Source: an uncultured Pseudomonadota bacterium
GTDB taxonomy: Bacteria; Babelota; Babeliae; Babelales; RVW-14
Direction of reading: 5' to 3'
DNA length: 64,000 bases
NCBI GenBank assembly: GCA_964493325.1
Contig: CAZBMD010000001.1
Span: 59,021-123,020, forward strand
The position numbers and the translations under genes were made by a program. Position 1 is the stretch's first letter. Each line of letters opens with the position of its first letter. Shown here one piece after another: positions 18,146 through 46,114 of the stretch. The notes under the pieces are model-generated. The model did no database searches and was not told the origin of the DNA. It was given only the letters and a program-made list of their open reading frames with translations.

Positions 18146-19312
18146 ATGCAAAAGTCAAAAATATTTGTTATAGGACTTGCCATATTTACCATGCTTTTTG
18201 GTGCTGGCAACGTTGTTTTTCCTCTTGAAGTTGGCCGTGCCGTTGGAGACAAGGTATGGTTTGCAATGCTGGGACTTATCGTTTCTGGCGTTATTATTCC
18301 TCTATTAGGCCTTATTGCTTCAATGATGTTTAATGGTGATTACAAGAAATTCCTTTCAACTGTAGGAACTATTCCAGGAGCACTTGTTGCACTGGTCTGT
18401 ATGGCTCTCCTCGGTCCCTTTGGGGCAACGCCTCGCTGCTTAAGTCTTGCCTACGCCGCAGTTAAATGGCACATACCGTCTATCTCCATTTTCGTGTTTA
18501 GCTTGGCAGCATCTGTGTTGGTTTTTTTGTGCACAATCAGAAAAAGTGGCATCGTTGCAATTATGGGCAAAATCTTAGGTCCAATTAAACTAGTATTGCT
18601 TTTTTCACTTATTATCATCGGAGTCATACATCCAAACACATCGCAAGTAATAGACATCGCTCCTTGGTCAACGTTTCTACTTGGTCTACGCGAAGGTTAT
18701 TGGACGCTTGATTTGCTTGCGACTATTTTCTTTTCAGGCCTTATTATTGCCGCTATCAAAAAACAAGATGGCGAAGATCTTAAACCAGTTGATCTTGCGC
18801 TCATAGGCCTTAAAGCTGGCATAATTGGAGCAACTTTATTAGGCGTAGTTTACGCTGGATTTTGCGGAGTCTCGGCAATGTACGGCTCGCAAATTATGCA
18901 TGTTGGACAAGATCAACTATTAAGCGCTCTTGCTATGATTATATTGGGTTCACATGCTGGTATTTTAGCGAATATTACAATGTCTATTGCATGTCTTTCA
19001 ACGGCTATTGCATTGACCGCCGTATTTGCTGACTATCTCAGATCAGAGATCTTTAAAGAAAAAGTAAGTTATTCGTACTCATTGCTTCTTACGGTTGTCA
19101 TAACATTTATTATGGCAAACTTAGGCTTTGCAAGAATTATGATAGCTATTGAACCTGTTGCAAAAGTTTTACTTCCTGCAGTTACAGTCCTTGTTATAGC
19201 AAACCTTGCTCAAAAAGTTTATGGATTTAAATATATCAAGATGCTGTTTTTCACAACGCTTATTGCTACCGTTGCTATAAATTTTTTACCTCAATGCATT
19301 ATCTGCTGGTAA
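18146..19312 (+). CDS. brnQ: branched-chain amino acid transport system II carrier BrnQ
   Basis: The internal ATG at 18146 follows ggaaagg. Starts MQKSKIFVIGLAIFTMLFGAGNVVFP (family motif F.MFFGAGN.IFP) and has about 12 predicted TM segments. Confidence 0.85.
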   Translation: MQKSKIFVIGLAIFTMLFGAGNVVFPLEVGRAVGDKVWFAMLGLIVSGVIIPLLGLIASMMFNGDYKKFLSTVGTIPGALVALVCMALLGPFGATPRCLSLAYAAVKWHIPSISIFVFSLAASVLVFLCTIRKSGIVAIMGKILGPIKLVLLFSLIIIGVIHPNTSQVIDIAPWSTFLLGLREGYWTLDLLATIFFSGLIIAAIKKQDGEDLKPVDLALIGLKAGIIGATLLGVVYAGFCGVSAMYGSQIMHVGQDQLLSALAMIILGSHAGILANITMSIACLSTAIALTAVFADYLRSEIFKEKVSYSYSLLLTVVITFIMANLGFARIMIAIEPVAKVLLPAVTVLVIANLAQKVYGFKYIKMLFFTTLIATVAINFLPQCIICW

Positions 19313-19323
19313 ACCTATTATAC

Positions 19324-19375
19324 AGGAGTGAGAACAAAAACCATTTATCAAGGCATGTTTTTTATTCTCACTCCT
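19324..19375 (+). terminator. hairpin downstream of brnQ (possible terminator)
   Basis: 11-bp perfect stem aggagtgagaa/ttctcactcct with a 30-nt loop, followed by ttctt. Confidence 0.35.
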
Positions 19376-19928
19376 TTCTTCCCACGGTTCTTATTTTTTA
19401 CCTATAATCCATTTTGTAAAGTTAAACGATTATAAATTGAGACAAAGACTCTAAGAGCCGCACTAATCAATTTTTTATTTTATCGAATTATTAAAATGCG
19501 AAAATAAGCTCAAAGAGAATTCGAATCTAAAGACTAACTACCATTTATTTTTTCAATTATCGAGTTGAAAGAGCGATGTCTTCGCTCTTAGAAATGCAAA
19601 AATTCAATGACACTGAAATAAAAAATTATTCAAATTATAAAATAAATTAACAGGCAGACATCATGCCTTTTTTTAAAAAAAATAGGCATTGAATTTTATA
19701 AAAATATCTTGACTTTTTTACTATAATTCTTTTCAAAAAACTCTTAAACCGCTTTGGTGAACGTCATTTTCATAAATAAAAAAAATATTTGATTGTACCC
19801 AATCAAATTGATAGATTATAGTTCGCGCCATCAAAAATACATTGTCAAAGAGAAAAATTCTTATTCTGTACAATTGATGGATTATGTATCGTTATAAGTG
19901 GGTATTTTAAAACTCAGGAGAATATCTT

Positions 19929-22440: not shown

Positions 22441-23457
22441 ATGAGCGCATTTCGGGACAAAAAATCCATAATTAATAATTCATCCACAGATCCAAATAAA
22501 ATTTTGCCAATGACCTATCTGTGGGCACGAGAACACTACAAAAACGGCATTGCAAATAACTGGACACCTGAAGAAGTTTCAATGCAAAAAGACGTCGAAC
22601 AATGGAAAGCTCATGATGTGCTATCTCCAGAAGAACGTCGACTCATTTTGTGGAATCTTGGCTTCTTTTCAACTGCCGAGTCATTGACTGCAAATAACAT
22701 TGTCCTTGCAGTGTACAAGCATGTTACCAACCCTGAATGCAGACAATATCTTTTGCGCCAAGCATTTGAAGAAGCAGTTCACACAGACACTTTTATTTAC
22801 TGCTGTGATTCATTGGGCCTTGATCCTGATTATATTTTTAATATGTATCAAAGCATCCCATCAATCAAAGCAAAAGATGATTTTGTTGTAAATATGACGC
22901 TTTCTCTTTTTGATGACAACTTTAAAACCGATACAGCACAAAATATTCAAAAGTTCTTGCTCGATCTCATCGGATTTTACGTGATCATGGAAGGCATTTT
23001 CTTCTACGCAGGATTTGCAATGATGCTTGCCCTCAAGCGTCAAAAAAAGATGGTTGGCGTTGGTGAGCAATTTGAATACATTATGCGCGATGAAAGCATT
23101 CACCTTGCTTTTGGTTGCGATTTAATCAACACCATCAAGGCAGAAAATCCTGAAATTTGGGATCATGAATTTCAAGTTAAAGTTATTGAACTGATTAAAC
23201 AATCGGTTGAACTTGAACGCGCGTACGCTCACGACGCTTGCCCTCAAGGACTTTTGGGCATCAACGCGGAGCAGTTCTGTGTGTACGTTGAACACATGGC
23301 TGACCGCCGGCTTGAACGCATTGGCCTGCCAAAGGTTTATCATAAAGAAAATCCATTTCCATGGATGGGATTGATGACTGACCTTGTTAAAGAAAAGAAC
23401 TTTTTTGAAACACGCGTCACTGAATATCAGACCGCTGGATCGCTTAAGTGGGATTAG
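22441..23457 (+). CDS. nrdB: ribonucleotide reductase beta subunit, class Ic-like (Phe at radical-Tyr position)
   Basis: The ATG at 22441 follows aaggag. Ligand pattern is E80, E111-x-x-H114, E184, E218-x-x-H221, with F118 (ttt at 22792-22794) where class Ia/Ib have the radical Tyr. Confidence 0.9.
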   Translation: MSAFRDKKSIINNSSTDPNKILPMTYLWAREHYKNGIANNWTPEEVSMQKDVEQWKAHDVLSPEERRLILWNLGFFSTAESLTANNIVLAVYKHVTNPECRQYLLRQAFEEAVHTDTFIYCCDSLGLDPDYIFNMYQSIPSIKAKDDFVVNMTLSLFDDNFKTDTAQNIQKFLLDLIGFYVIMEGIFFYAGFAMMLALKRQKKMVGVGEQFEYIMRDESIHLAFGCDLINTIKAENPEIWDHEFQVKVIELIKQSVELERAYAHDACPQGLLGINAEQFCVYVEHMADRRLERIGLPKVYHKENPFPWMGLMTDLVKEKNFFETRVTEYQTAGSLKWD

Positions 23458-23483
23458 GTAGACTTGTTTAATTATTAATAAAT

Positions 23484-23525
23484 AAAAAATCCGCTGACGG
23501 GTTAAAGCATCAGCGGATTTTTTTA
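23484..23525. terminator. bidirectional intrinsic terminator
   Basis: A-run, then an 8-bp stem tccgctga/tcagcgga (23490-23497 / 23510-23517) with a 12-nt loop, then a T-run. Lies between the convergent nrdB and lipoprotein genes. Confidence 0.7.
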
Positions 23526-23556
23526 AACTTTAAAGCAAAAATTAATCAGCAATTAT

Positions 23557-24057
23557 TCAGTTATAGGCTATTCCATTTGCACAAAATTCACGCATAAAAT
23601 CTTCTAGAGAACTCAGCCCTTCAGAGAATTTATTGATTAAATAATCAATCGAAGATGGCTCATTATTAACTAATTCGTCGTTACCGTCTACATCTCCAAA
23701 CAACTCTCGTATTTCGTCGATATAGCGTTGCATTCCCTCTTCATCACCTTCATTCAATAATTTGAGCTCCAGCCCGCGAATATCTTGAAAATACTGTTGC
23801 ATTTGGCTAGAGCACGCAAGCTTGCGGAATTCATCAGACTGCTTCAATATCTGTAACTGTTGCTGCATCCTCTGTAAACATTCCTGCATTAGATCTAACG
23901 AGTCTCGATTATTATTTTCATCTAATGAGCTGACAATGTTGTATTCATCCAGATCTAACGTTTGATTCTTAAACTCTTGCATGGCATTTACACTTTGACA
24001 TCCTATTCCAGCAAGTACCAGCGCTGCAAGCGCTAGACTTTTTAATTTGATTTTCAT
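23557..24057 (-). CDS. hypothetical lipoprotein
   Basis: The ATG at 24057 gives MKIKLKSLALAALVLAGIGC with a lipobox L-A-G-I-G-C. The product is an acidic, Q-rich 166-aa protein. This is the cargo gene of the nrdB 3'-end duplication. Confidence 0.6.
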   Translation of the reverse strand: MKIKLKSLALAALVLAGIGCQSVNAMQEFKNQTLDLDEYNIVSSLDENNNRDSLDLMQECLQRMQQQLQILKQSDEFRKLACSSQMQQYFQDIRGLELKLLNEGDEEGMQRYIDEIRELFGDVDGNDELVNNEPSSIDYLINKFSEGLSSLEDFMREFCANGIAYN

Positions 24058-24156
24058 AAAAAAATCCTTTATGTAAAAAAATAAATATAACAACTATAGA
24101 ATAAGCAAAAAATCTACGGAGAGATTACTCGTTTTGTCTTTTTTGTCAAAAATATC

Positions 24157-24275
24157 GCCAAAAGGTTTAATCCTTTTTCGTTGATAGAATTGATGACTGA
24201 CCTTGTCAAAGAAAAATTTTTTTTGAAACAAGCGTTACTGAGTACCTGACTGCTAAATCGCTGAAGTGCGATTGG
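24157..24275 (+). pseudogene. decayed duplicate of the nrdB 3' end
   Basis: Collinear with nrdB 23328-23457. There is an 18-nt exact block attgatgactgaccttgt (23370-23387 = 24189-24206) and roughly 80% identity by eye over about 87 nt. An 11-nt deletion lies upstream of the exact block (nrdB tcataaagaaa, 23340-23350). A 1-nt deletion downstream of it breaks the frame, giving LMTDLVKEKFFLKQALLST*. Confidence 0.8.
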
Positions 24276-24281
24276 CCTAAA

Positions 24282-27233
24282 CTAAAAAGCTTCGCCAATC
24301 GTCAGATACCACGCGTATCCAAGATCATTTGGAATTCTTTTTTTCCACTTCCAACCAATATCAAAGCGCAACGCGCCAATCGGAGTCTTGTATCGCAAGC
24401 CAAAACCTGATGTTGGAAACCACGTATCAGTCAGGCCTAAAAATCCTGACTGGCTCAAGACACCAATATCTTGAAAAAGAACAGTGCCAAAAGATTTGTA
24501 GACCGGAATGCGAAGCTCAATATTACCATTGAGCATAGAACTACCGCCTTGAATAGTATATTCCTTGGTAACCAGCGGATCTATTGGATTTTTGGTGTCA
24601 TCAGATGTGGTATATTCATTAATAATATTGCCATTAAGATCTTTTTCAGTAACACCAAGAGGCGGCACAGCATCTTTTTCGTACCCGCGAACCGAATATG
24701 GTCCCCCAAGATAGAACCGTTCGATAGGCATAACAAAATCAAACTTACGCTTAAAAATATGGCCAATGCGAAGATGGGCTGCAAAAATAACTTTTTTATA
24801 GATAGGATAGAAAAATGATTGCTCGGCAAAAAGCTTTGCGGTTATATCTCCTTTATTTTGCGGAAGCATGAATTTAAGTGAGAAAAATCCCAACCCTCCT
24901 TTGCTCGGATTGAGTCTATTATCAAGATTGTCTATCAGAAGGCTTGGTTCAATAAATAAAAAAGGAAGCGTTGTGTCAATGACGCTACTATTTAATTTTA
25001 AATAGCCTCGTACTCGACTGGTCCGAAGCCACTCGCTCCCCACGTTTATTCCCCAGAAATAATTTTGCTTGTACTCATCACTAATGCCAAGCAAAAAACC
25101 ATTTTGAATAGCCTCGTACGCAGATCCACTCGATCCAATCTGGACAGGATGAACATACTTATTGGCATAACCTTTTATCTTACCCATAAATGGAAAATTT
25201 AACGGAGATGGCAAGGCATAGTCGACATCAAATTTACGTTCAAACTTGGTCCAATCAAAATCAAGCGATAGTTTGTCAGCTCGATTAGTTGGATTTTTTA
25301 AAATAAGCGAAGCTCCCAACTTTGGTGTTGATTGCCGTTTAAAGAGAAAATTTTTACTTGTTAAAAAATAACCAGCACGTAGCCGAACTTCTGCGGTATC
25401 ATCATCGGTTAGAGTCAAAATGATTGGTTTTTTACTACTTGGCTTAGCTAACTGATCAGGCTGAATTTGAACCGATTGAAAGATATCAAGACGCTTTAAC
25501 TTGCGGCGCGTTAGATCAATTTTATCACGACTCCACAAATCACCTTCTTTGCATTTTATTTCTTTTATAATTCGGCTAAACGGAAGCTTGGTATTGCCTC
25601 TGACAATAATTTTTCCAAAACGTACCTGCTCACCCATATCAATTTTCCAGCGAACAAAGATTCGCATCCTGTTATTAATTGTCTTTGAAGCCGGTAAAAC
25701 GAGAAACTCCGGTTCAACGTCTACATACCAATATCCAAGCTTTTGAAAGTAATTCATTAAAAACAGCCGCTGCTCTTGAAGCCAATTATAATTAAAAGGA
25801 ACCCACTGATTTTTAAAATGAGGTCGATATTTTTTAAAAAAATCAGAAGACTCAAGTTGCCGATAACCTTCAATCTCAAACCCATTCCAAAAACGCTGAA
25901 TCCCTTTTTCTACAATTAAGCTAATGGTGTAAGAATCTGTATCTGAGTTTTTTGTAACACGCTGTTCAAGAATCTTAAAATCCCAAAAACCAATAGAAAA
26001 GTATGATTGTGCAAGACGATTTATGCCATCTTCAAGCATCTGCTGATCATACTTTTTTTCATGCAGCAGATCTACGAAGAAAGATGAACATTCCTCCGGA
26101 ATTTCTGTTTTACTATCTCTTATTTCTATATTTTGAACAATAATCGGCTCTTGCTCTTCGATTGAAAAATGAAAACCAGAATTGCCAAGAGCTTGATAGG
26201 TAATCCGTGGCTTCCAATAGCCTCGCTTGTAGTACTCATGCATAATTTGTTCGGTAATAATGTCTGGAGAAAAAAGCCAATCAGGTTCATCAGTCCCTAT
26301 AATGTCTTCACGAATTTCTTGATCACTAAAAAGTGTATTACCGCTAAACCGTAATAATTTTCGCTTCCCTAGTGTAATTGAAACCGTAAGATCAACTGTA
26401 TGTTTTTTTGGGTTCACTTTGCGTGTCAGCAAAATACGGCTATTCAGAAAATCTTTCTTTTTTAAGATAGAGCGCATTTTTTTTATTTGCTTTTGAATCG
26501 AAGCTTTTTCATAGTCTGCGTGTAAAAGCTGGTTCTTAAATTTTCGCTCAATTTCATTAATAAAACTGGGAGCTCGGCCCTTTTCGCCCTGCAAGATAGC
26601 TTTATCAAGATCATTAATTTGAAAAGTAATCGCATTAATTGTGAATACTTGACGACGTTTAATACGTATTTTGACTGTAACAGATTTTCGCTTTTGCGAA
26701 TAAAAAATTTCGTCCGAAACTGACGCCTGAAAAAATCCTTGGTCATAAAGCGTCTTTTTAATGGTTTTTATTGATTCTTCATGTTGAACCACATCAAAAA
26801 CATCCCCAGGCTGAGGAGAATAAAGAGCGACATATTTTTGCCGACCAAAAAGTATCCCCAAAATAGAAACTTTTTTTAACGTCCAAGCGCCTATCAAAGT
26901 AAAGTGAAGGCGCTTCTGAACCCCATCATCAAATAAATCAATATTGATAGAAGCAAATCGCTTCTTGCTCATTAATTGTTTGTACGCATGGATGATATTG
27001 TGTTTGGTAATCAATGAATGAGGCTTAAGGCAGGTAAGATAAAAAAATTCTTCTTTGCTAAAAGGAATATCTGCGTCAAACGTAATTTCATTAAGCATAA
27101 GCGAATCTGCTTGAGATCCAAGCATTGCTGTAATCTTACTAAAATTTCCGCCATAGCCCGGGTCTTGAGAATAGACACTTACACAACAAAAAAATAGATG
27201 TAGAAATAAGAATAATATCTTTTTTGTGATCAC
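24282..27233 (-). CDS. Omp85-family outer membrane protein (TamA/BamA paralog, oversized)
   Basis: 983 aa with a GTG start, a signal peptide and POTRA-like repeats. The C-terminal barrel contains GGPYSVRGY and ends GYAWYLTIGEAF (terminal Phe). Confidence 0.8.
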   Translation of the reverse strand: MITKKILFLFLHLFFCCVSVYSQDPGYGGNFSKITAMLGSQADSLMLNEITFDADIPFSKEEFFYLTCLKPHSLITKHNIIHAYKQLMSKKRFASINIDLFDDGVQKRLHFTLIGAWTLKKVSILGILFGRQKYVALYSPQPGDVFDVVQHEESIKTIKKTLYDQGFFQASVSDEIFYSQKRKSVTVKIRIKRRQVFTINAITFQINDLDKAILQGEKGRAPSFINEIERKFKNQLLHADYEKASIQKQIKKMRSILKKKDFLNSRILLTRKVNPKKHTVDLTVSITLGKRKLLRFSGNTLFSDQEIREDIIGTDEPDWLFSPDIITEQIMHEYYKRGYWKPRITYQALGNSGFHFSIEEQEPIIVQNIEIRDSKTEIPEECSSFFVDLLHEKKYDQQMLEDGINRLAQSYFSIGFWDFKILEQRVTKNSDTDSYTISLIVEKGIQRFWNGFEIEGYRQLESSDFFKKYRPHFKNQWVPFNYNWLQEQRLFLMNYFQKLGYWYVDVEPEFLVLPASKTINNRMRIFVRWKIDMGEQVRFGKIIVRGNTKLPFSRIIKEIKCKEGDLWSRDKIDLTRRKLKRLDIFQSVQIQPDQLAKPSSKKPIILTLTDDDTAEVRLRAGYFLTSKNFLFKRQSTPKLGASLILKNPTNRADKLSLDFDWTKFERKFDVDYALPSPLNFPFMGKIKGYANKYVHPVQIGSSGSAYEAIQNGFLLGISDEYKQNYFWGINVGSEWLRTSRVRGYLKLNSSVIDTTLPFLFIEPSLLIDNLDNRLNPSKGGLGFFSLKFMLPQNKGDITAKLFAEQSFFYPIYKKVIFAAHLRIGHIFKRKFDFVMPIERFYLGGPYSVRGYEKDAVPPLGVTEKDLNGNIINEYTTSDDTKNPIDPLVTKEYTIQGGSSMLNGNIELRIPVYKSFGTVLFQDIGVLSQSGFLGLTDTWFPTSGFGLRYKTPIGALRFDIGWKWKKRIPNDLGYAWYLTIGEAF

Positions 27234-34802: not shown

Positions 34803-37190
34803 CTACTCACCAAGTAACATGATTTCTTTCAAAATAGTGTCAGGGTTAAGCGAGATTGAATCGATACCAAGCTTGACCAAAAATTCGGCAAATTCTGGAT
34901 AATCTGACGGAGCTTGTCCACAAATGCCAATTTTTTTACCATTGCGCTTTGCGCCAGTAATTGCCATCTCGAGCATCAAAAGAACCGCTTTATTCCGCTC
35001 ATCAAACACATGAGCAACCAGTGCCGAGTCTCGATCAACAGCCAATGTCATTTGCGTTAAATCGTTTGACCCAATCGAAAACCCATCAAAGACTTTACTA
35101 AAATCATCAATGAGTAAAACATTGGAAGGAATCTCGCACATCATATAAATTTGCAGGCCATTTTCTCCTTGTACCAAGCCATGACTTTTCATAACAGCAA
35201 TTACTTGCTCAGCTTCGTCTACCGTTCGGACAAACGGGAGCATTAAAATTACGTTAGTCAGACCCATTTCGTCTCGAATTTTTTTCATGGCGTGGCATTC
35301 AAGCGCAAATGCTTCTTTATAACTTGGATGATAGTAGCGTGACGCACCGCGAAAACCGATCATTGGGTTTTCTTCGATCGGTTCAAAGACACTCCCAGCA
35401 AAAAGCTTGCTGTACTCATTGCTTTTAAAATCAGAAAGGCGAATAATCACCGGCTCTGGGTAAAATGCCGCAGCAATAGTTCCAGCTTCTTGAGCTAGCT
35501 TATCGATAAAGTAACGTTTTTTATCTTGGTAATGTACAGTCAGCTGATCAAAAATCTTTTTATCTTCAGGATCTTGTATGCGCTCTGAATGAACAAGCGC
35601 CATAGGATGAAGCTGAATTGCGTTGTTGATGATAAACTCAAGGCGCGCAAGACCAACACCGCTGTGAGGCAATTTTGCAAGATTAAAAGCTTCGTCAGGG
35701 TTGGCAACGTTCATCATTAGTTTGACAGGTGGTGTCTTGAGCGTTGTCAGTTCAATAGCTTTAAGCTCAAATGGCAAGGTACCTGCATACACCGAGCCTA
35801 CTTCTCCATTGCTGCAATCAAGCGTAATTGCTTGGCCATCTTTAATTTTTGACGTTCCATCTTGCGTACCAACAACCGCTGGAATACCTATTTCTCGACT
35901 GATGATCGCAGCATGACACGTACGACCACCACGGTTTGTTACAATGCCTGCAGCACGCTTCATAACTGGCTCCCAATCAGGGTCAGTCATGTCGGTAACA
36001 ATAATGTCACCAGCTTGAACAAGATTCATATCTTTGGCCGAAGCAATGACCCGTGCAAGGCCTGTTGCAATACGCCTACCCACACTTTTACCAACAACAA
36101 GCAACTGTTCTTTCCCTGCTGCAGATTTATCGAGCACATACTCTTCAAGCTTGGTCTGATGCTGTTTTTGTGAATGAATAGTTTCTGGCCGCGCTTGCAC
36201 AATGTAAAGCTTGCCATCAATACCATCCTTGGCCCACTCAATGTCCATCGGACACCACACCCCTTTTTGAGTTGAGTAGTACTGTTCAATAATCAGCGCT
36301 TGCTGCGCAAGAAACAATACCTCATCATCGGTGAGTGAAAAATGTGAGCGCTCGTCCGGCGAAGTATCAAGATTGCGCGTTTTTTCTTTGCCACTTGCAT
36401 ATTCCATGCGGAGCAATTTGCTTCCTAATCTTTTTTTGAGCAGAGGCTTAAAGCCTTTGGCAAGTGTTGGTTTGTGAACATAAAATTCATCTGGATTCAC
36501 CGCTCCTTGAACAATATTTTCACCAAGGCCGTACGAAGAGGTTATATAAACAACATCTTTAAATCCACTCTCGGTATCAAGCGTAAAAATAACACCGGAA
36601 CAAGCCTTATCTGAGCGAATCATTTTTTGAACGCCAATAGAAAGAGCAACGCTCATGTGATCAAAGTCATTATCAATGCGATACGAAATTGCCCGATCGG
36701 TAAACAATGAAGCAAAAGCTGCAGGAACGCAAGCAAGCAGCTCTTCTGGGCCTTTGATATTAAGATAGGTTTCTTGTTGACCAGCAAAGGACGCTTGCGG
36801 TAAATCTTCGGCAGTTGCTGATGAGCGCACAGCAACATCACACAACTTCCCATACATCTTTTCTAATGCTGCGTATGCCTGAGTAATTTCTAGAGCAAGA
36901 TCCTGAGGAACAGAAGCATTGCGCATGAGCGTGCGCACTTCTTGCCCAATGCGAGAAAATTCTCCCAGGTGATCTTTATCAAGAGTAGAAAGCAACTTGG
37001 TAATTGGTTTTTTGAGTGAATTACTTTCAAGAAAGTATTCATAAGCTTCTGCGGTAATGGCAAATCCAGTTGGAACCTGCACACCTTGTTGCTTTAAATT
37101 GCAAATCATCTCTCCAAGAGAAGCGTTCTTTCCGCCAACAAGATTGATGTCTTTTAGACCGATCTCTTCGAATAATTTTATAAATTTCAT
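34803..37190 (-). CDS. ppsA: phosphoenolpyruvate synthase (pyruvate, water dikinase)
   Basis: MKFIKLFEEIGLKDINLVGGKNASLGEM, the phosphohistidine region GGRTCHAAIISRE and a C-terminal PEP-utilising TIM-barrel domain. An alternative ATG lies at 37220. Confidence 0.95.
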   Translation of the reverse strand: MKFIKLFEEIGLKDINLVGGKNASLGEMICNLKQQGVQVPTGFAITAEAYEYFLESNSLKKPITKLLSTLDKDHLGEFSRIGQEVRTLMRNASVPQDLALEITQAYAALEKMYGKLCDVAVRSSATAEDLPQASFAGQQETYLNIKGPEELLACVPAAFASLFTDRAISYRIDNDFDHMSVALSIGVQKMIRSDKACSGVIFTLDTESGFKDVVYITSSYGLGENIVQGAVNPDEFYVHKPTLAKGFKPLLKKRLGSKLLRMEYASGKEKTRNLDTSPDERSHFSLTDDEVLFLAQQALIIEQYYSTQKGVWCPMDIEWAKDGIDGKLYIVQARPETIHSQKQHQTKLEEYVLDKSAAGKEQLLVVGKSVGRRIATGLARVIASAKDMNLVQAGDIIVTDMTDPDWEPVMKRAAGIVTNRGGRTCHAAIISREIGIPAVVGTQDGTSKIKDGQAITLDCSNGEVGSVYAGTLPFELKAIELTTLKTPPVKLMMNVANPDEAFNLAKLPHSGVGLARLEFIINNAIQLHPMALVHSERIQDPEDKKIFDQLTVHYQDKKRYFIDKLAQEAGTIAAAFYPEPVIIRLSDFKSNEYSKLFAGSVFEPIEENPMIGFRGASRYYHPSYKEAFALECHAMKKIRDEMGLTNVILMLPFVRTVDEAEQVIAVMKSHGLVQGENGLQIYMMCEIPSNVLLIDDFSKVFDGFSIGSNDLTQMTLAVDRDSALVAHVFDERNKAVLLMLEMAITGAKRNGKKIGICGQAPSDYPEFAEFLVKLGIDSISLNPDTILKEIMLLGE

Positions 37191-43061: not shown

Positions 43062-43160
43062 AATTAACTCAAATCACCACGAAACATAAACGAAACAGAG
43101 ATTTTGAGTGCAACTGTTTTGTCTTCTTCAATCACGCATTAAATAGAGCCACCAGGAGCA
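43062..43160 (-). pseudogene. decayed duplicate of the dapF 3' end
   Basis: The terminal 23 nt (43062-43084) are identical to dapF 44303-44325, covering codons FRGDLS, the stop and 2 nt beyond. A further 75 nt or so align at roughly 50-70% identity by eye (for example ttgaagaaga, ggctc) with frame disruptions. Confidence 0.7.
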
Positions 43161-43260
43161 CACATCTCCTTGCAAAACAAACCTGAATGCGATATTTTAC
43201 AATAAAATTAAAATAGAATTGATAGCCGTAATAAATCAAACAAATAATGAAAGAAAAGTA

Positions 43261-44301
43261 ATGAAAAATAATCGCATATTATGCGCCTTAATGTTGTTAT
43301 TTGGATTGATCAGTTCATCGCATGGAGCTTTTATTCCGTTAATAAACGAGATACAGCAAGTTCATGCTCCCACAATTATCGAAGCATCACCAGGAAACGT
43401 TCTTATTGCTTTTTATGGCGGACAAAAGGTAAACAATCCTAACAACAAAGGAACAAATGATTGCTCTATTTGGTTAACAAGTTTCTGCCTCCAAACAGGT
43501 TGGTGGGATTCTCCTCTACAAGTTGCATCAGGTATCGAGGTATTTGAAAAATCAATAGCATGCTGGGACCCTGTTTTGTGCAAACTAGCTTCTGGAAAAA
43601 TCTATCTTTTTTACAAAATAGGCACAGATACCGCATCGTGGACAGGCTTTGTAAAATCTTCAGATGATAACGGACTTACCTGGTCAAAACCGCAATGTCT
43701 TGCTCAATTTGACGTTACAGGACCTCATAAATGCAAGCCTGTTATTACTCAGGACGCGCTCCTTTGTCCCGCAAGCAGAGCAAGTGAAGGTTTTCGAGCA
43801 GGATGTGTTGAGCGAGCAACTCATGACCTTGAGGTATGGGAAGTCAGCAACCTGATAACAAGCGACCAGGAAAAAGCCTTTTTGCAGCAGCCAACAATCT
43901 TTCAAACGAAAAATAACACCATTCACCTTATTTTTCGATCACGTAACTTGCCCTGCCTGTACACCTCGTCATATAAAAATGGAGGATGTACACATCCTAT
44001 AGAGACCAACCTTGCCGGCTCAGACTCAAGCCTTGATACACTCACACTTGATGATGGACGAGTATTACTTGCGTATAATGATATTCAAGGAAGCGGTCGC
44101 CACCGACTTGTTTTGATGCAGTGCCAGAACAACGAATGCACGCAATGGAAGCAGGTGAAAGTTATTGCAGAATCAAATGATTCATCAAAAATATTTTGCT
44201 ACCCATCAATGATTCAAGACTCTCATGGAATGATACACCTTGTGTATATTCAAGACTACGAAAAAATCTGTTATGAAATTATAGATCCAAGCAGCCTTTG
44301 A
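43261..44301 (+). CDS. BNR/Asp-box sialidase-family protein (exo-alpha-sialidase-like), secreted
   Basis: The ATG at 43261 is followed by a signal peptide. HAPTIIEASPGNVLIAFYGG, CWDPVL, LFYKIG and the Asp-box SSDDNGLTW match the BNR_2 sialidase-like family. Confidence 0.75.
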   Translation: MKNNRILCALMLLFGLISSSHGAFIPLINEIQQVHAPTIIEASPGNVLIAFYGGQKVNNPNNKGTNDCSIWLTSFCLQTGWWDSPLQVASGIEVFEKSIACWDPVLCKLASGKIYLFYKIGTDTASWTGFVKSSDDNGLTWSKPQCLAQFDVTGPHKCKPVITQDALLCPASRASEGFRAGCVERATHDLEVWEVSNLITSDQEKAFLQQPTIFQTKNNTIHLIFRSRNLPCLYTSSYKNGGCTHPIETNLAGSDSSLDTLTLDDGRVLLAYNDIQGSGRHRLVLMQCQNNECTQWKQVKVIAESNDSSKIFCYPSMIQDSHGMIHLVYIQDYEKICYEIIDPSSL

Positions 44302-44302
44302 T

Positions 44303-44325
44303 AATTAACTCAAATCACCACGAAA
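44303..44325. repeat. 23-nt exact direct repeat (copy 2; copy 1 at 43062-43084)
   Basis: AATTAACTCAAATCACCACGAAA occurs at 43062-43084 and 44303-44325, bracketing the sialidase-like gene. The flanking bases differ on both sides. Confidence 0.9.
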
Positions 44326-45135
44326 AGCAATTGCTGCAGAAGCCTTGAGAATAACATTGCCATCTTCTTCAACTGTACACTCAACTGAGCCCCCAAGCAT
44401 GGTAATAAAAAAAGTCTGATTGATTTCAACTTTACCAAGTTGCGCCAAAAGACCAGCTACTGCCGCAGCGCCAGAACTGCACGCAAGCGTTATACCGCAG
44501 CCACGCTCATACACAAGCACTTGAAAATGAGTAGAATCAATTTGCCAAACAAATTCAACATTAGTTTTACAAGGGAAGCTGACATGCTGTTCAATGACAC
44601 GTCCATACTGCGTTAGCCATGCCAATTCTACTTGCTGAAAAACAATAAAATGAGGGTTGCCTATTTCGACGGTGTAGCCAGAAAAATTACCTACTGACGT
44701 TTTAATTGAATGTTCTATACCAACGGAAGGACTCCCGACATTGGTCAAAATTTGAATTTCAACTCCCGGCTTTTTTTCATCAACAACGGTGCACGTAACT
44801 TCTCGCTGACCAAATTTAATAACAAAATTTTTGGGGAAATTGTACGTCGTGTACAAGTGAAACGCAACACAGCGCAGTCCATTCAAACAGTTTTCTGCAG
44901 ATGTTCCATCGCAATTAAAAACAAGCATCTCGGGTAAACCAAGCGTCGGATTGCTTTTGACAACCAAAACTCCATCAGCTCCCACTCCGTAGTGCCTATC
45001 GCAAATTTTTTGTACTTGCTCGGTAAAGCCAACGGCAGCAAGATCACTTTCTAAATAAAAAGATGCTCGCTTGTACCAATCAAATAAAATAAAATCGTTA
45101 CCAAGCGACTGATATTTAAAAAAATTATTGAGCAT
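44305..45135 (-). CDS. dapF: diaminopimelate epimerase
   Basis: The ATG at 45135 gives MLNNFFKYQSLGNDFILFD. Has GNPHFIVF and the catalytic Cys regions NCDGTSAENCLNGLRC and ERGCGITLACSSGAAA. Confidence 0.9.
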   Translation of the reverse strand: MLNNFFKYQSLGNDFILFDWYKRASFYLESDLAAVGFTEQVQKICDRHYGVGADGVLVVKSNPTLGLPEMLVFNCDGTSAENCLNGLRCVAFHLYTTYNFPKNFVIKFGQREVTCTVVDEKKPGVEIQILTNVGSPSVGIEHSIKTSVGNFSGYTVEIGNPHFIVFQQVELAWLTQYGRVIEQHVSFPCKTNVEFVWQIDSTHFQVLVYERGCGITLACSSGAAAVAGLLAQLGKVEINQTFFITMLGGSVECTVEEDGNVILKASAAIAFRGDLS

Positions 45136-46114
45136 GATACTCACGAGAAAAATTGGGTTGCTGATTTGTATTTGAGAGCTTTTCTGAATTTTGGTGTAAC
45201 CCAAAAACTTTGCTCAGATATGCGCGACCGGAGTCTGCAAGGATAACAACAACTACATCAGAAGGTTGTAATTTTTTGCAATACTGCAGAGCAACATGCA
45301 TAACAGCTCCGCTACTTATCCCCATCAATAGTCCATGCTTTTGAGCAAGCGTACGCGTCATTGCAAACGCATCATCATCGGAAATTGGCAAAATTTCATC
45401 AACCACGGACTGGTCAAACGTATCTGAAATAACATCTATACCAAGACCCTCAACATTGTAAGCTTTTGGCTCTTTGCTTGAATACATGGATGTTGCCGCG
45501 TCAATACCAATAATTTTTACAGCAGGATTTTGCTCTTTAAGATAACGACCAATGCCCGACATGGTACCACAGCTACCAGCGCCCATAAAAACATGAGTCA
45601 CCGTGCCGCTTGTTTGTTGCCAAATTTCAGGTCCAGTTGTTGAGTAGTGCGCAAGCGGATTGGATTTATTAAAATACTGATTTGGCATAAACGCACCAGG
45701 TATGGTTTGAGCAAGACGCACGGCAAGCGTATGATAATTTGAAGGGTCGTCATGAGAGTCGGTATTTGGGCACACATGAACTTCGGCACCGTAGGCACGC
45801 AAAACAGCTACTTTTTCGCTCGATGTTCGATCGGGCACCGTGATGATAACTCGATAACCTTTGACCTTACCAATCATCGAAAGAGCTATTCCCTGATTGC
45901 CCGATGATGCTTCAACAATAGTTCCACCTGGCTTAAGTTTGCCATTGCGCTCTGCTTCTTCAATCATAAAAAGTGCACAACGGTCTTTGATGCTTCCTCC
46001 TGGATTGAGGTATTCCAGTTTAGCAAGAAGCAACGGCGCTGTTCCTAAATCAAGGCGTACAATAGGAGTATTACCAATCGCCTCAAGAAAATTTTTGTAT
46101 GTATTTTGTGTCAT
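45125..46114 (-). CDS. cysK: PLP-dependent cysteine synthase family protein
   Basis: LEYLNPGGSIKDRCA (PLP Lys), EASSGNQG and GAGSCGTMSG. Overlaps the dapF start by 11 nt. Confidence 0.85.
   Translation of the reverse strand: MTQNTYKNFLEAIGNTPIVRLDLGTAPLLLAKLEYLNPGGSIKDRCALFMIEEAERNGKLKPGGTIVEASSGNQGIALSMIGKVKGYRVIITVPDRTSSEKVAVLRAYGAEVHVCPNTDSHDDPSNYHTLAVRLAQTIPGAFMPNQYFNKSNPLAHYSTTGPEIWQQTSGTVTHVFMGAGSCGTMSGIGRYLKEQNPAVKIIGIDAATSMYSSKEPKAYNVEGLGIDVISDTFDQSVVDEILPISDDDAFAMTRTLAQKHGLLMGISSGAVMHVALQYCKKLQPSDVVVVILADSGRAYLSKVFGLHQNSEKLSNTNQQPNFSREYHAQ

Follow-up and report, generated by a model that had tools for sequence, protein, structure and literature searches.

A decayed duplicate of the nrdB 3' end beside an orphan gene in a Babeliales genome, and its place in a series of gene-end scars

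The nrdB-BamA interval and the duplicated gene end

The window analysed here is a stretch of 64,000 nucleotides (nt) from the genome of an uncultured bacterium of the Babeliales (assembly GCA_964493325.1, contig CAZBMD010000001.1), and plain coordinates refer to positions in it. The whole assembly, labelled G000, comprises 1.39 Mb and its contigs are given as C-numbers. The locus under study lies between nrdB, encoding the small subunit of ribonucleotide reductase, and the convergently oriented gene for BamA (Omp85). A single gene, called here the cargo gene, is located between them, and the 3' end of nrdB is present twice: once in the intact gene and once as a degraded copy, the relic, next to the end of the BamA gene. 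The interval is composed of the following features (aa, amino acids):

22441-23457, plus strand: nrdB, ribonucleotide reductase small subunit, intact (P0002; Pfam Ribonuc_red_sm, E 6e-88)
23328-23457, plus strand: proximal repeat copy, the working nrdB 3' end, with the last ~43 codons and the stop (from the alignments)
23458-24156, no strand assigned: inserted segment of ~700 nt between the copies, unique in the genome
23484-23523, no strand assigned: bidirectional rho-independent terminator with a 16-bp stem, shared by nrdB and the cargo gene (terminator scan)
23557-24057, minus strand: cargo gene for a 166-aa exported orphan protein, predicted to be all-helical (P0001; open reading frame (ORF) and translation)
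24157-24275, plus strand: relic, the decayed duplicate of the nrdB 3' end (from the alignments)
24282-27233, minus strand: BamA/Omp85, 983 aa, convergent to nrdB (Pfam Omp85 and POTRA)

The same-strand recurrence of the nrdB 3' end (23328-23457) at 24157-24275, proposed in the initial annotation, was confirmed by alignment. A gapped local alignment joined positions 23328-23464 of the host copy with 24157-24283 of the relic and contained 104 identical positions. The core of the repeat (23350-23455 versus 24169-24273) was 106 nt long and 81% identical with a single 1-nt gap, in agreement with the ~80% over ~87 nt estimated earlier by eye. Compared with the host copy, the relic lacks 11 nt (tcataaagaaa) and has gained 1 nt, both near its 5' end, and it has also lost 1 nt located 3' of an A-run; the long deletion and the frame-breaking short one had both been described before and were recovered in the gapped alignment. 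The frame of the relic reads ...NPFSLIELMTDLVKEKFFLKQALLST followed by a stop. The former stop codon of the relic (24273-24275) changed from TAG to TGG and is placed 6 nt from the stop codon of BamA (24282-24284), in keeping with the proposed closeness of the relic to the Omp85 gene. The 19 substitutions found in the 106-nt core were evenly spread.

Chance similarity in AT-rich sequence, for which the low regional G+C and nothing further speaks, can be dismissed. The nrdB tail searched with blastn against the whole assembly gave the relic as its sole match (E = 4e-22). A Smith-Waterman alignment of the last 150 nt of nrdB with the nrdB-BamA gap reached a score of 64, whereas 1000 dinucleotide-preserving shuffles scored 10.8 ± 1.4 with a maximum of 18 (z = 39), and none of the 1000 reached even one third of the real score. 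The reverse-complement control scored 12. The concern that the similarity might be no better than that of shuffled AT-rich sequence, voiced together with the original proposal, was removed in this way. The 18-nt exact block was indeed present within the repeat, but the significance attached to it did not hold: a repeat of 106 nt with 81% identity should contain about 0.45 runs of this length, which places the block within chance.

The insert is thus flanked by same-strand direct repeats exceeding 30 bp, of ~130 nt each. The repeated unit is a protein-coding 3' end occurring as a single pair in the genome, and is not an insertion sequence (IS), a repetitive extragenic palindromic sequence or a tRNA sequence. 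The nrdB product itself is 77-84% identical to NrdB of related genera. The bidirectional terminator and the one opposite-strand gene said to lie between the copies were both found. With a G+C content of 34% (39% in the window) and a G+C fraction at third codon positions of 0.365 in the cargo gene, the composition of the insert is ordinary for the genome and not foreign. It had no second match in the rest of the genome, and neither terminal inverted nor direct repeats were found when its ends were searched for them.

The cargo gene is a 166-codon open frame in DNA of 38% G+C, with a signal peptide and a ribosome-binding site, AAGGA, ~8 nt upstream of the ATG. It is co-directional with BamA. As no BamA terminator ahead of the relic turned up in the terminator scan, the cargo gene is probably transcribed by read-through from BamA, and the terminator that this gene shares with nrdB would end the transcript. 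The protein matched no Pfam family, and no homologue was found among 5.8 billion proteins in a word-indexed search or among 1.84 billion cluster representatives in an exhaustive HMMER search. Used as a query against metagenome and genome contigs, it retrieved no related loci. A single-sequence AlphaFold2 model was helical, with a mean confidence score (pLDDT) of 44, which is unreliable and too poor for a fold search. The gene had been described as encoding a lipobox protein. Its predicted export was upheld, and the lipobox only in part: the signal peptide ends in ...LVLAGIG↓C, where the Gly at -3 departs from the standard applied ([LVI][ASTVI][GAS]C at the signal peptide end), and this imperfect lipobox is followed by a signal peptidase I site, VNA↓MQ. 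The latter appears at least as plausible as the former and the status of the product as a lipoprotein is uncertain.

Origin of the distal copy and the search for recombination enzymes

To polarise the differences between the two copies, the NrdB C-termini of 20 related genomes were aligned. The NrdB of the lineage studied has private residues, with GLMTDLVKEK in place of the (S/A)Q(A/S)TDL(A/T/S)KEK found elsewhere and a K in SLKWD; LMTDLV (versus QATDLA/S) and this K occurred in no other genus sampled. With its frame restored, the relic reads NPFSLIE-LMTDLVKEK...SLKCD and shows the private residues on either side of the exact block. The relic therefore derives from the resident nrdB or that of a very close relative, and reads as a decayed copy of such an end. 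The non-synonymous differences between the copies are P>S, W>L, M>I, G>E, R>S, Q>L, G>K, W>C and stop>W. At every one of them, the working nrdB kept the family consensus and the relic carried the odd residue, in accordance with the earlier view that it was the distal copy which decayed. The lineage-specific residues are present in both copies, and there is no sign of the foreign "replacement" 3' end that had been considered alongside. Divergence at codon positions 1+2 amounted to 8 of 71 sites, or ~0.12 substitutions per site; the insertion is an old event.

The distal copy could also have been retained for a function, either within the read-through transcript of BamA as an antisense to the 3' end of the nrdB mRNA or as a promoter or untranslated region of the cargo gene. 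The lack of a BamA terminator before the relic, by which it is probably transcribed in antisense, is consistent with this. So is the relic at another locus of the genome, frr, whose terminator hairpin has preserved its pairing by compensatory changes, which means that some relics are functional in part. The nrdB relic, however, bears frameshifts and deletions and its 19% substitutions are evenly spread. On the BamA strand, it showed no fold beyond that of shuffled sequences (z = 0.34) and no terminator signal, and it has no homologue in relatives. Retention for function is accordingly regarded as highly improbable, and the nrdB relic is most probably functionless now.

The genome was also searched for enzymes that might have inserted the segment, as the initial annotation had advised. 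Only two genes of the Phage_integrase family were detected, both on contig C4 and Xer-like in size. The sole Resolvase hit was located on C17, a contig with 66% G+C and probably a contamination, and no serine recombinase was found on contigs with the composition of this genome. Eight short contigs (C15, C17-C20, C22, C24 and C26) stood out by 55-67% G+C against ~40% in the rest of the bin, and they are probably contamination. Ku was searched for in the genome and not found; RecA and ComEC-like genes are present. No integrase or transposase was detected in or beside the nrdB insert, which in its 0.7 kb holds one ORF without a Pfam family. The hallmarks of transposons and IS were absent as well, since there were no terminal inverted repeats and the duplication has ~130 nt, not 2-14 bp.

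These data bear on the suggestion that the segment entered by attP x attB (phage and bacterial attachment site) recombination, with an element-borne replacement nrdB end and a single cargo gene left. The architecture resembles that created by e14 or phage 21 in icd of E. coli, where an intact gene is accompanied by a pseudo-3'-end, icdC, on the far side of the element (PMC13626634). In both cases, the target is kept intact by a proximal copy of its 3' end, a non-functional copy marks the distal junction and the repeats permit excision by recombination. However, e14, a prophage of 15 kb, encodes an integrase of its own and brings along both a defined att core and an element-borne replacement end (PMC13626634), whereas the nrdB locus has no integrase, no core and an insert of 0.7 kb. 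The 18-nt exact block in the nrdB repeat and a 23-nt exact end at a second locus of the genome, dapF, the latter exceeding chance, would fit a core sequence. Set against this, the 18-nt block is expected by chance at the identity observed, so that the nrdB repeats show no att core beyond chance, and the only candidate enzymes genome-wide are the two Xer-like tyrosine recombinases and the Resolvase on the contaminant contig. Moreover, about ten target genes, described below, have neither a common core nor a common end motif: in their ten inserts, terminal inverted repeats (scores at background), direct repeats and shared end k-mers or motifs were looked for and none was found. These inserts, of 0.5-3.3 kb, contain no element remnants. 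Site-specific integration was thus left without support at nrdB and is considered very unlikely.

Gene-end scars elsewhere in the genome and in related genomes

The scan for further scars covered the whole assembly, on which ORFs were called and the last 180 nt of each gene compared with its own neighbourhood; in a second scan, every intergenic segment was compared with the neighbouring genes. Tandem repeat-protein families and contig ends were excluded from the counts. Intergenic copies of a neighbouring unique gene were almost always copies of its 3' end, located downstream and on the same strand, with ~10 cases in total. Copies of 5' ends numbered 0-1, and no opposite-strand copies were found, one repeat-element region and hairpins aside. 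The search for further 3'-end duplicates, suggested along with the nrdB and dapF cases, thus added about eight to these two. Host genes and cargo were checked against Pfam, and cargo without a family was named from its sequence. The series comprises:

nrdB (window): repeat of 106 nt, 81% identity; cargo, orphan exported protein
dapF (window): repeat of 99 nt, 67%; cargo, BNR_2 sialidase-like protein
ClpB-like (C2:3570-8526): repeat of 100 nt, 83%; cargo, FAD oxidoreductase and L-PSP/RidA
DEAD/Helicase_C, PriA-like (C2:14466-19823): repeat of 84 nt, 88%; cargo, 1051-aa secreted protein
Adenosine deaminase (C2:137274-140240): repeat of 117 nt, 73.5%; cargo, 558-aa secreted protein
frr (C2:221500-224660): repeat of 213 nt, 83%; cargo, small secreted paralogues
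alaS (C6:35920-39617): repeat of 55 nt, 96%; cargo, PemK toxin
APH-family kinase (C11:12088-14291): repeat of 58 nt, 86%; cargo, DUF4143/AAA_14 ATPase
ftsZ (C11:34449-36671): repeat of 84 nt, 97.6%; cargo, MazE and PemK/MazF
TLC ATP/ADP translocase, tlc (C3:71037-73284): repeat of 92 nt, 89%; cargo, 217-aa secreted protein

The recurrence of the architecture at dapF, proposed from the letters, was substantiated (67% identity over 99 columns, z = 13 against shuffles), and the repeat there closes with the 23-nt exact end, which includes the stop codon. The parts of this second locus in the window are:

44304-44420, minus strand: proximal copy, the working dapF 3' end (gene at 44305-45204; alignment)
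43261-44301, plus strand: cargo gene for an exported BNR_2 (sialidase-like) protein, convergent to dapF (Pfam BNR_2, E 2e-40)
43062-43180, minus strand: relic, an older decayed copy of the 3' end

A putative tandem copy of the brnQ end without cargo (19271-19490) was also considered, but with a local score of 17 versus 10.7 ± 1.7 for shuffles (maximum 21) it was not confirmed.

In five cases (frr, ftsZ, tlc, alaS and ClpB-like), the repeat extends past the stop codon, and in three of them (frr, ftsZ and tlc) it includes the terminator hairpin. The orientation of the cargo relative to the host gene was 5:5. Downstream of frr (C2:221583-224198), an array of repeat-plus-cargo units is present. 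It encodes three small exported proteins of 136, 153 and 225 aa with different mature parts and a nearly identical 5' region and signal peptide (MEDYIMT.QNTKRSV.LAMM), and a copy of the frr end or its terminator is found upstream of each cargo gene. The array looks like an amplification by unequal crossing-over between the repeats. The ftsZ relic (C11:34449-34638 versus 35309-35730) is not uniform: over its final 84 nt, made up of 32 nt of coding sequence and the terminator, it is 97.6% identical to the working end, but over the adjoining 95 nt the identity is only 78%, and it lacks 243 nt of the FtsZ linker, in frame. This suggests gene conversion at a later time or two events. At the alaS locus, a 142-nt, 95% identical copy of the 3' end of the PemK gene (C6:36782-36923 versus 36058-36198) lies upstream of PemK, between it and alaS, and may stem from a second, or a nested, rearrangement within the insertion at alaS.

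Pooled over the ten repeats, the differences between the copies were distributed 34:31:71 over codon positions 1:2:3 (136 in total), and the single-step changes comprised 57 synonymous and 79 non-synonymous ones. A model in which the copies were identical at insertion and in which the relic then evolved neutrally while the working copy drifted at synonymous sites expects ~28:27:45% and fits these counts (chi-square 2.6, 2 degrees of freedom). Neutral decay of one copy alone (33:33:33) was rejected (chi-square 22), and purifying selection on both copies would give far fewer non-synonymous differences than were seen. The pooled data do not require a diverged donor copy, although with 136 differences a slightly diverged donor would be compatible with them. 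The codon-position spectrum, which fits copies identical or nearly so at insertion, hence gives no support to a replacement end either.

No genome of the same genus was found in any collection searched. A search with the BamA C-terminus yielded 89 Babeliales loci, none above 68% identity. The convergent arrangement of nrdB next to BamA is shared by eight other genera of the family, but there the gap spans 947-4673 nt and contains 1-4 genes that differ by genus. None of the genes in these gaps was related to the cargo, and no nrdB relic was found at 19 related nrdB loci, where only terminator hairpins repeat. The nrdB-BamA interval is thus a hot spot for the turnover of genes. In a genome of another genus (L037, from G007), the 42-nt nrdB terminator hairpin is repeated with 90% identity ~2.2 kb downstream, beyond the adjacent gene for a 691-aa protein, possibly as a duplication of the terminator alone. 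The nrdB gene itself was present in 25 of 41 related genomes (20 of 33 of high quality), so ribonucleotide reductase is patchy across the family and order.

The scan was repeated on the 89 Babeliales loci around BamA, about 1 Mb in total, and revealed five to six further cases, two of them at the BamA 3' end itself. There, an empty and an occupied site could be compared. In L119, a closed Babeliaceae chromosome (OY969927.1; 5225-8515), a PemK gene directly follows BamA. In its sister L117 (CAWKEK010000005.1; 5255-10458), 1.86 kb are inserted between BamA and PemK, in the order BamA, a gene for a 138-aa protein, a 98-nt copy of the BamA end, a gene for a 364-aa protein and a second copy of the BamA end. 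The first copy is 93% identical to the BamA end of L117 and is the younger one; the second, with 83%, is older, corresponds to the last ~82 nt of BamA and continues collinearly into the PemK flank shared with L119 (79% over 701 nt). The 1.86-kb insert had no other match in the L119 genome, and the younger relic shares L117-specific substitutions with the L117 BamA gene. In this pair, the repeats align with a single-copy target in an insert-free genome, as the published definition of insertion with long target duplication demands. The process operates in Babeliales, and repeated events build arrays in which the youngest relic is nearest to the gene. PemK was also considered as one cargo family recurring beside relics of different genes; this was dropped, the PemK gene of L117 and L119 lying in the original flank.

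A further explanation for the nrdB locus is a local tandem duplication of the nrdB end together with downstream DNA, in which the cargo gene was already resident and most of the second copy was lost afterwards. Direct repeats can drive unequal crossing-over, and the frr array indeed consists of repeat-plus-cargo units whose cargo genes have common 5' ends. At nrdB, however, the BamA end comes directly after the relic without any trace of a second cargo copy. It is precisely the 3' end that was retained in all of the ~ten cases, with no instance of a lone internal or 5' fragment, and the L117/L119 pair documents a true gain of DNA absent from the sister. Tandem duplication is therefore judged unlikely.

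Proposed history of the insertion and its meaning

The nrdB scar is best read, with good though not full confidence, as the product of an integrase-free insertion with long target duplication in which the end of the resident nrdB was copied. The duplication itself, the resident-lineage origin of the relic and the decay of the distal copy argue for this reading, together with the absence of recombinase and transposon hallmarks, the recurrence at ~ten gene 3' ends and the empty and occupied sites in the sister genomes. A segment of ~700 nt with the gene for the orphan exported protein and the terminator would have been inserted directly behind the nrdB stop codon, and the last ~130 nt of the resident nrdB would have been duplicated in the same event. 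The upstream copy would have stayed as the working end of nrdB. The downstream copy, still joined to the original flank at the BamA end, would have lost all constraint and decayed.

Several points weigh against this history. Since the cargo is an orphan, it leads to no particular donor. At nrdB, 11 of the 19 differences fall on third positions, which is somewhat above the expectation of the simple model and would also fit a slightly diverged donor. At ftsZ, the contrast of 97.6% with 78% makes later recombination or conversion between the copies possible, that is, histories of more than one event. The nrdB site itself has no empty-site allele from the same genus or species; the empty nrdB-Omp85 allele sought in related genomes was not encountered, every related gap holding 1-4 other genes. 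With other genes present between nrdB and BamA in every related genus, only the relic points to an earlier state in which 6 nt separated the two stop codons. The initial annotation took this abutment as ancestral. The position of the relic does imply it, but since the eight other genera always hold genes in between, it can only have been a transient state of this lineage and not the ancestral one of the family.

As regards the molecular route of the insertion, two options appear about equally likely. In the first one, RecA-dependent recombination would have taken up DNA of a close relative anchored by homology in the nrdB end, either by single crossover of a circle (Campbell-type) or by a homologous anchor combined with an illegitimate join. 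This would explain why several repeats end exactly at the stop codon, because homology between relatives ends there, and would also explain arrays at the same gene end. The Campbell-type crossover named in the initial annotation is possible only with a closely related donor, as both copies resemble the resident lineage. In the second option, a staggered break would have trapped foreign DNA, and the overhangs on either side of the break would have been filled in. No donor homology is needed for this, which would suit an orphan cargo. The bias towards 3' ends may be selective rather than mechanistic, as a duplication at the 5' end would part the gene from its promoter.

One homologous anchor suffices to import adjacent foreign DNA in a RecA-dependent manner without mobile-element enzymes, and single crossover of a circle yields the order repeat, cargo, repeat. 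Homology-facilitated illegitimate recombination of this kind in natural transformation has reportedly been described by de Vries and Wackernagel in 2002 and by Prudhomme et al. in 2002. The single-anchor or Campbell route differs from the situation observed here in predicting a donor with the cargo already beside nrdB, and none is known. To our knowledge, integration by this route has not been demonstrated in Dependentiae.

Insertion with long target duplication is said to have been reported by Nobusato et al. in 2000 (Gene 259:99). The class was defined by Kobayashi's group for restriction-modification genes of Helicobacter pylori and later found in Haemophilus, Neisseria, Campylobacter, Burkholderia and others (Furuta, Abe & Kobayashi 2010, NAR 38:2428; PMC2853133). 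Its repeats measure 46-423 bp and flank a cassette of less than 20 kb without mobility genes; some of them overlap gene 3' ends, and the class is biased to naturally competent species (PMC2853133). How it comes about is described as unexplained, and invasion, amplification and release have been proposed to form a cycle (PMC2853133). The nrdB scar agrees with the class in that the direct repeats, with ~130 nt, far exceed a transposon target duplication, the repeat corresponds to a single-copy target and mobility genes are missing, some repeats of the class overlapping 3' ends as well. Selfish cargo is shared too, represented by restriction-modification systems there and by MazEF/PemK in two cases here, and so are competence genes, which are found in most species affected. 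The differences concern first of all the cargo, which is an orphan exported protein at nrdB and includes secreted enzymes, toxin-antitoxin pairs and an AAA ATPase elsewhere in this genome, instead of restriction-modification systems. The host here is an obligate parasite of protists, and its scars are old (67-98%), lie strictly at gene 3' ends and number ~10 per 1.39 Mb. The nrdB site differs also in having no empty-site comparison, while the other testable defining features of the class were all found.

Taken alone, the nrdB scar is an ordinary fossil of gene gain, and greater interest attaches to its recurrence, both throughout the genome and within the order. It points to no new enzyme or system. 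What it reveals is ~ten accessory genes placed behind housekeeping genes in a reduced, host-dependent genome without dedicated integrases, each bracketed by a 3'-end duplicate. The literature search found no paper describing such a pattern of gene-end scars in Dependentiae. For annotation, a rule follows by which a same-strand 3'-end relic marks the boundary and the polarity of an insertion, and the known range of hosts and cargo of insertion with long target duplication, so far mainly associated with restriction-modification systems, is broadened.

In Babeliales/Dependentiae, which are largely without integrases and transposases, such insertion at gene 3' ends might even be the main visible route of gene gain, with the units acting as integrase-free mobile cassettes; this wider proposal is tentative and at present rather doubtful. 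If it were true, RecA recombination between the repeats could loop the cassettes out; they could also multiply on the spot, in the manner of the frr array, and insert again at that conserved gene end in related cells within a common protist host. Arrays of progressively older relics would be the outcome, as seen at frr in this genome and at BamA in L117. The scars themselves form a record from which gene acquisition can be dated, in a phylum so far encountered only in metagenomes and a small number of co-cultures.

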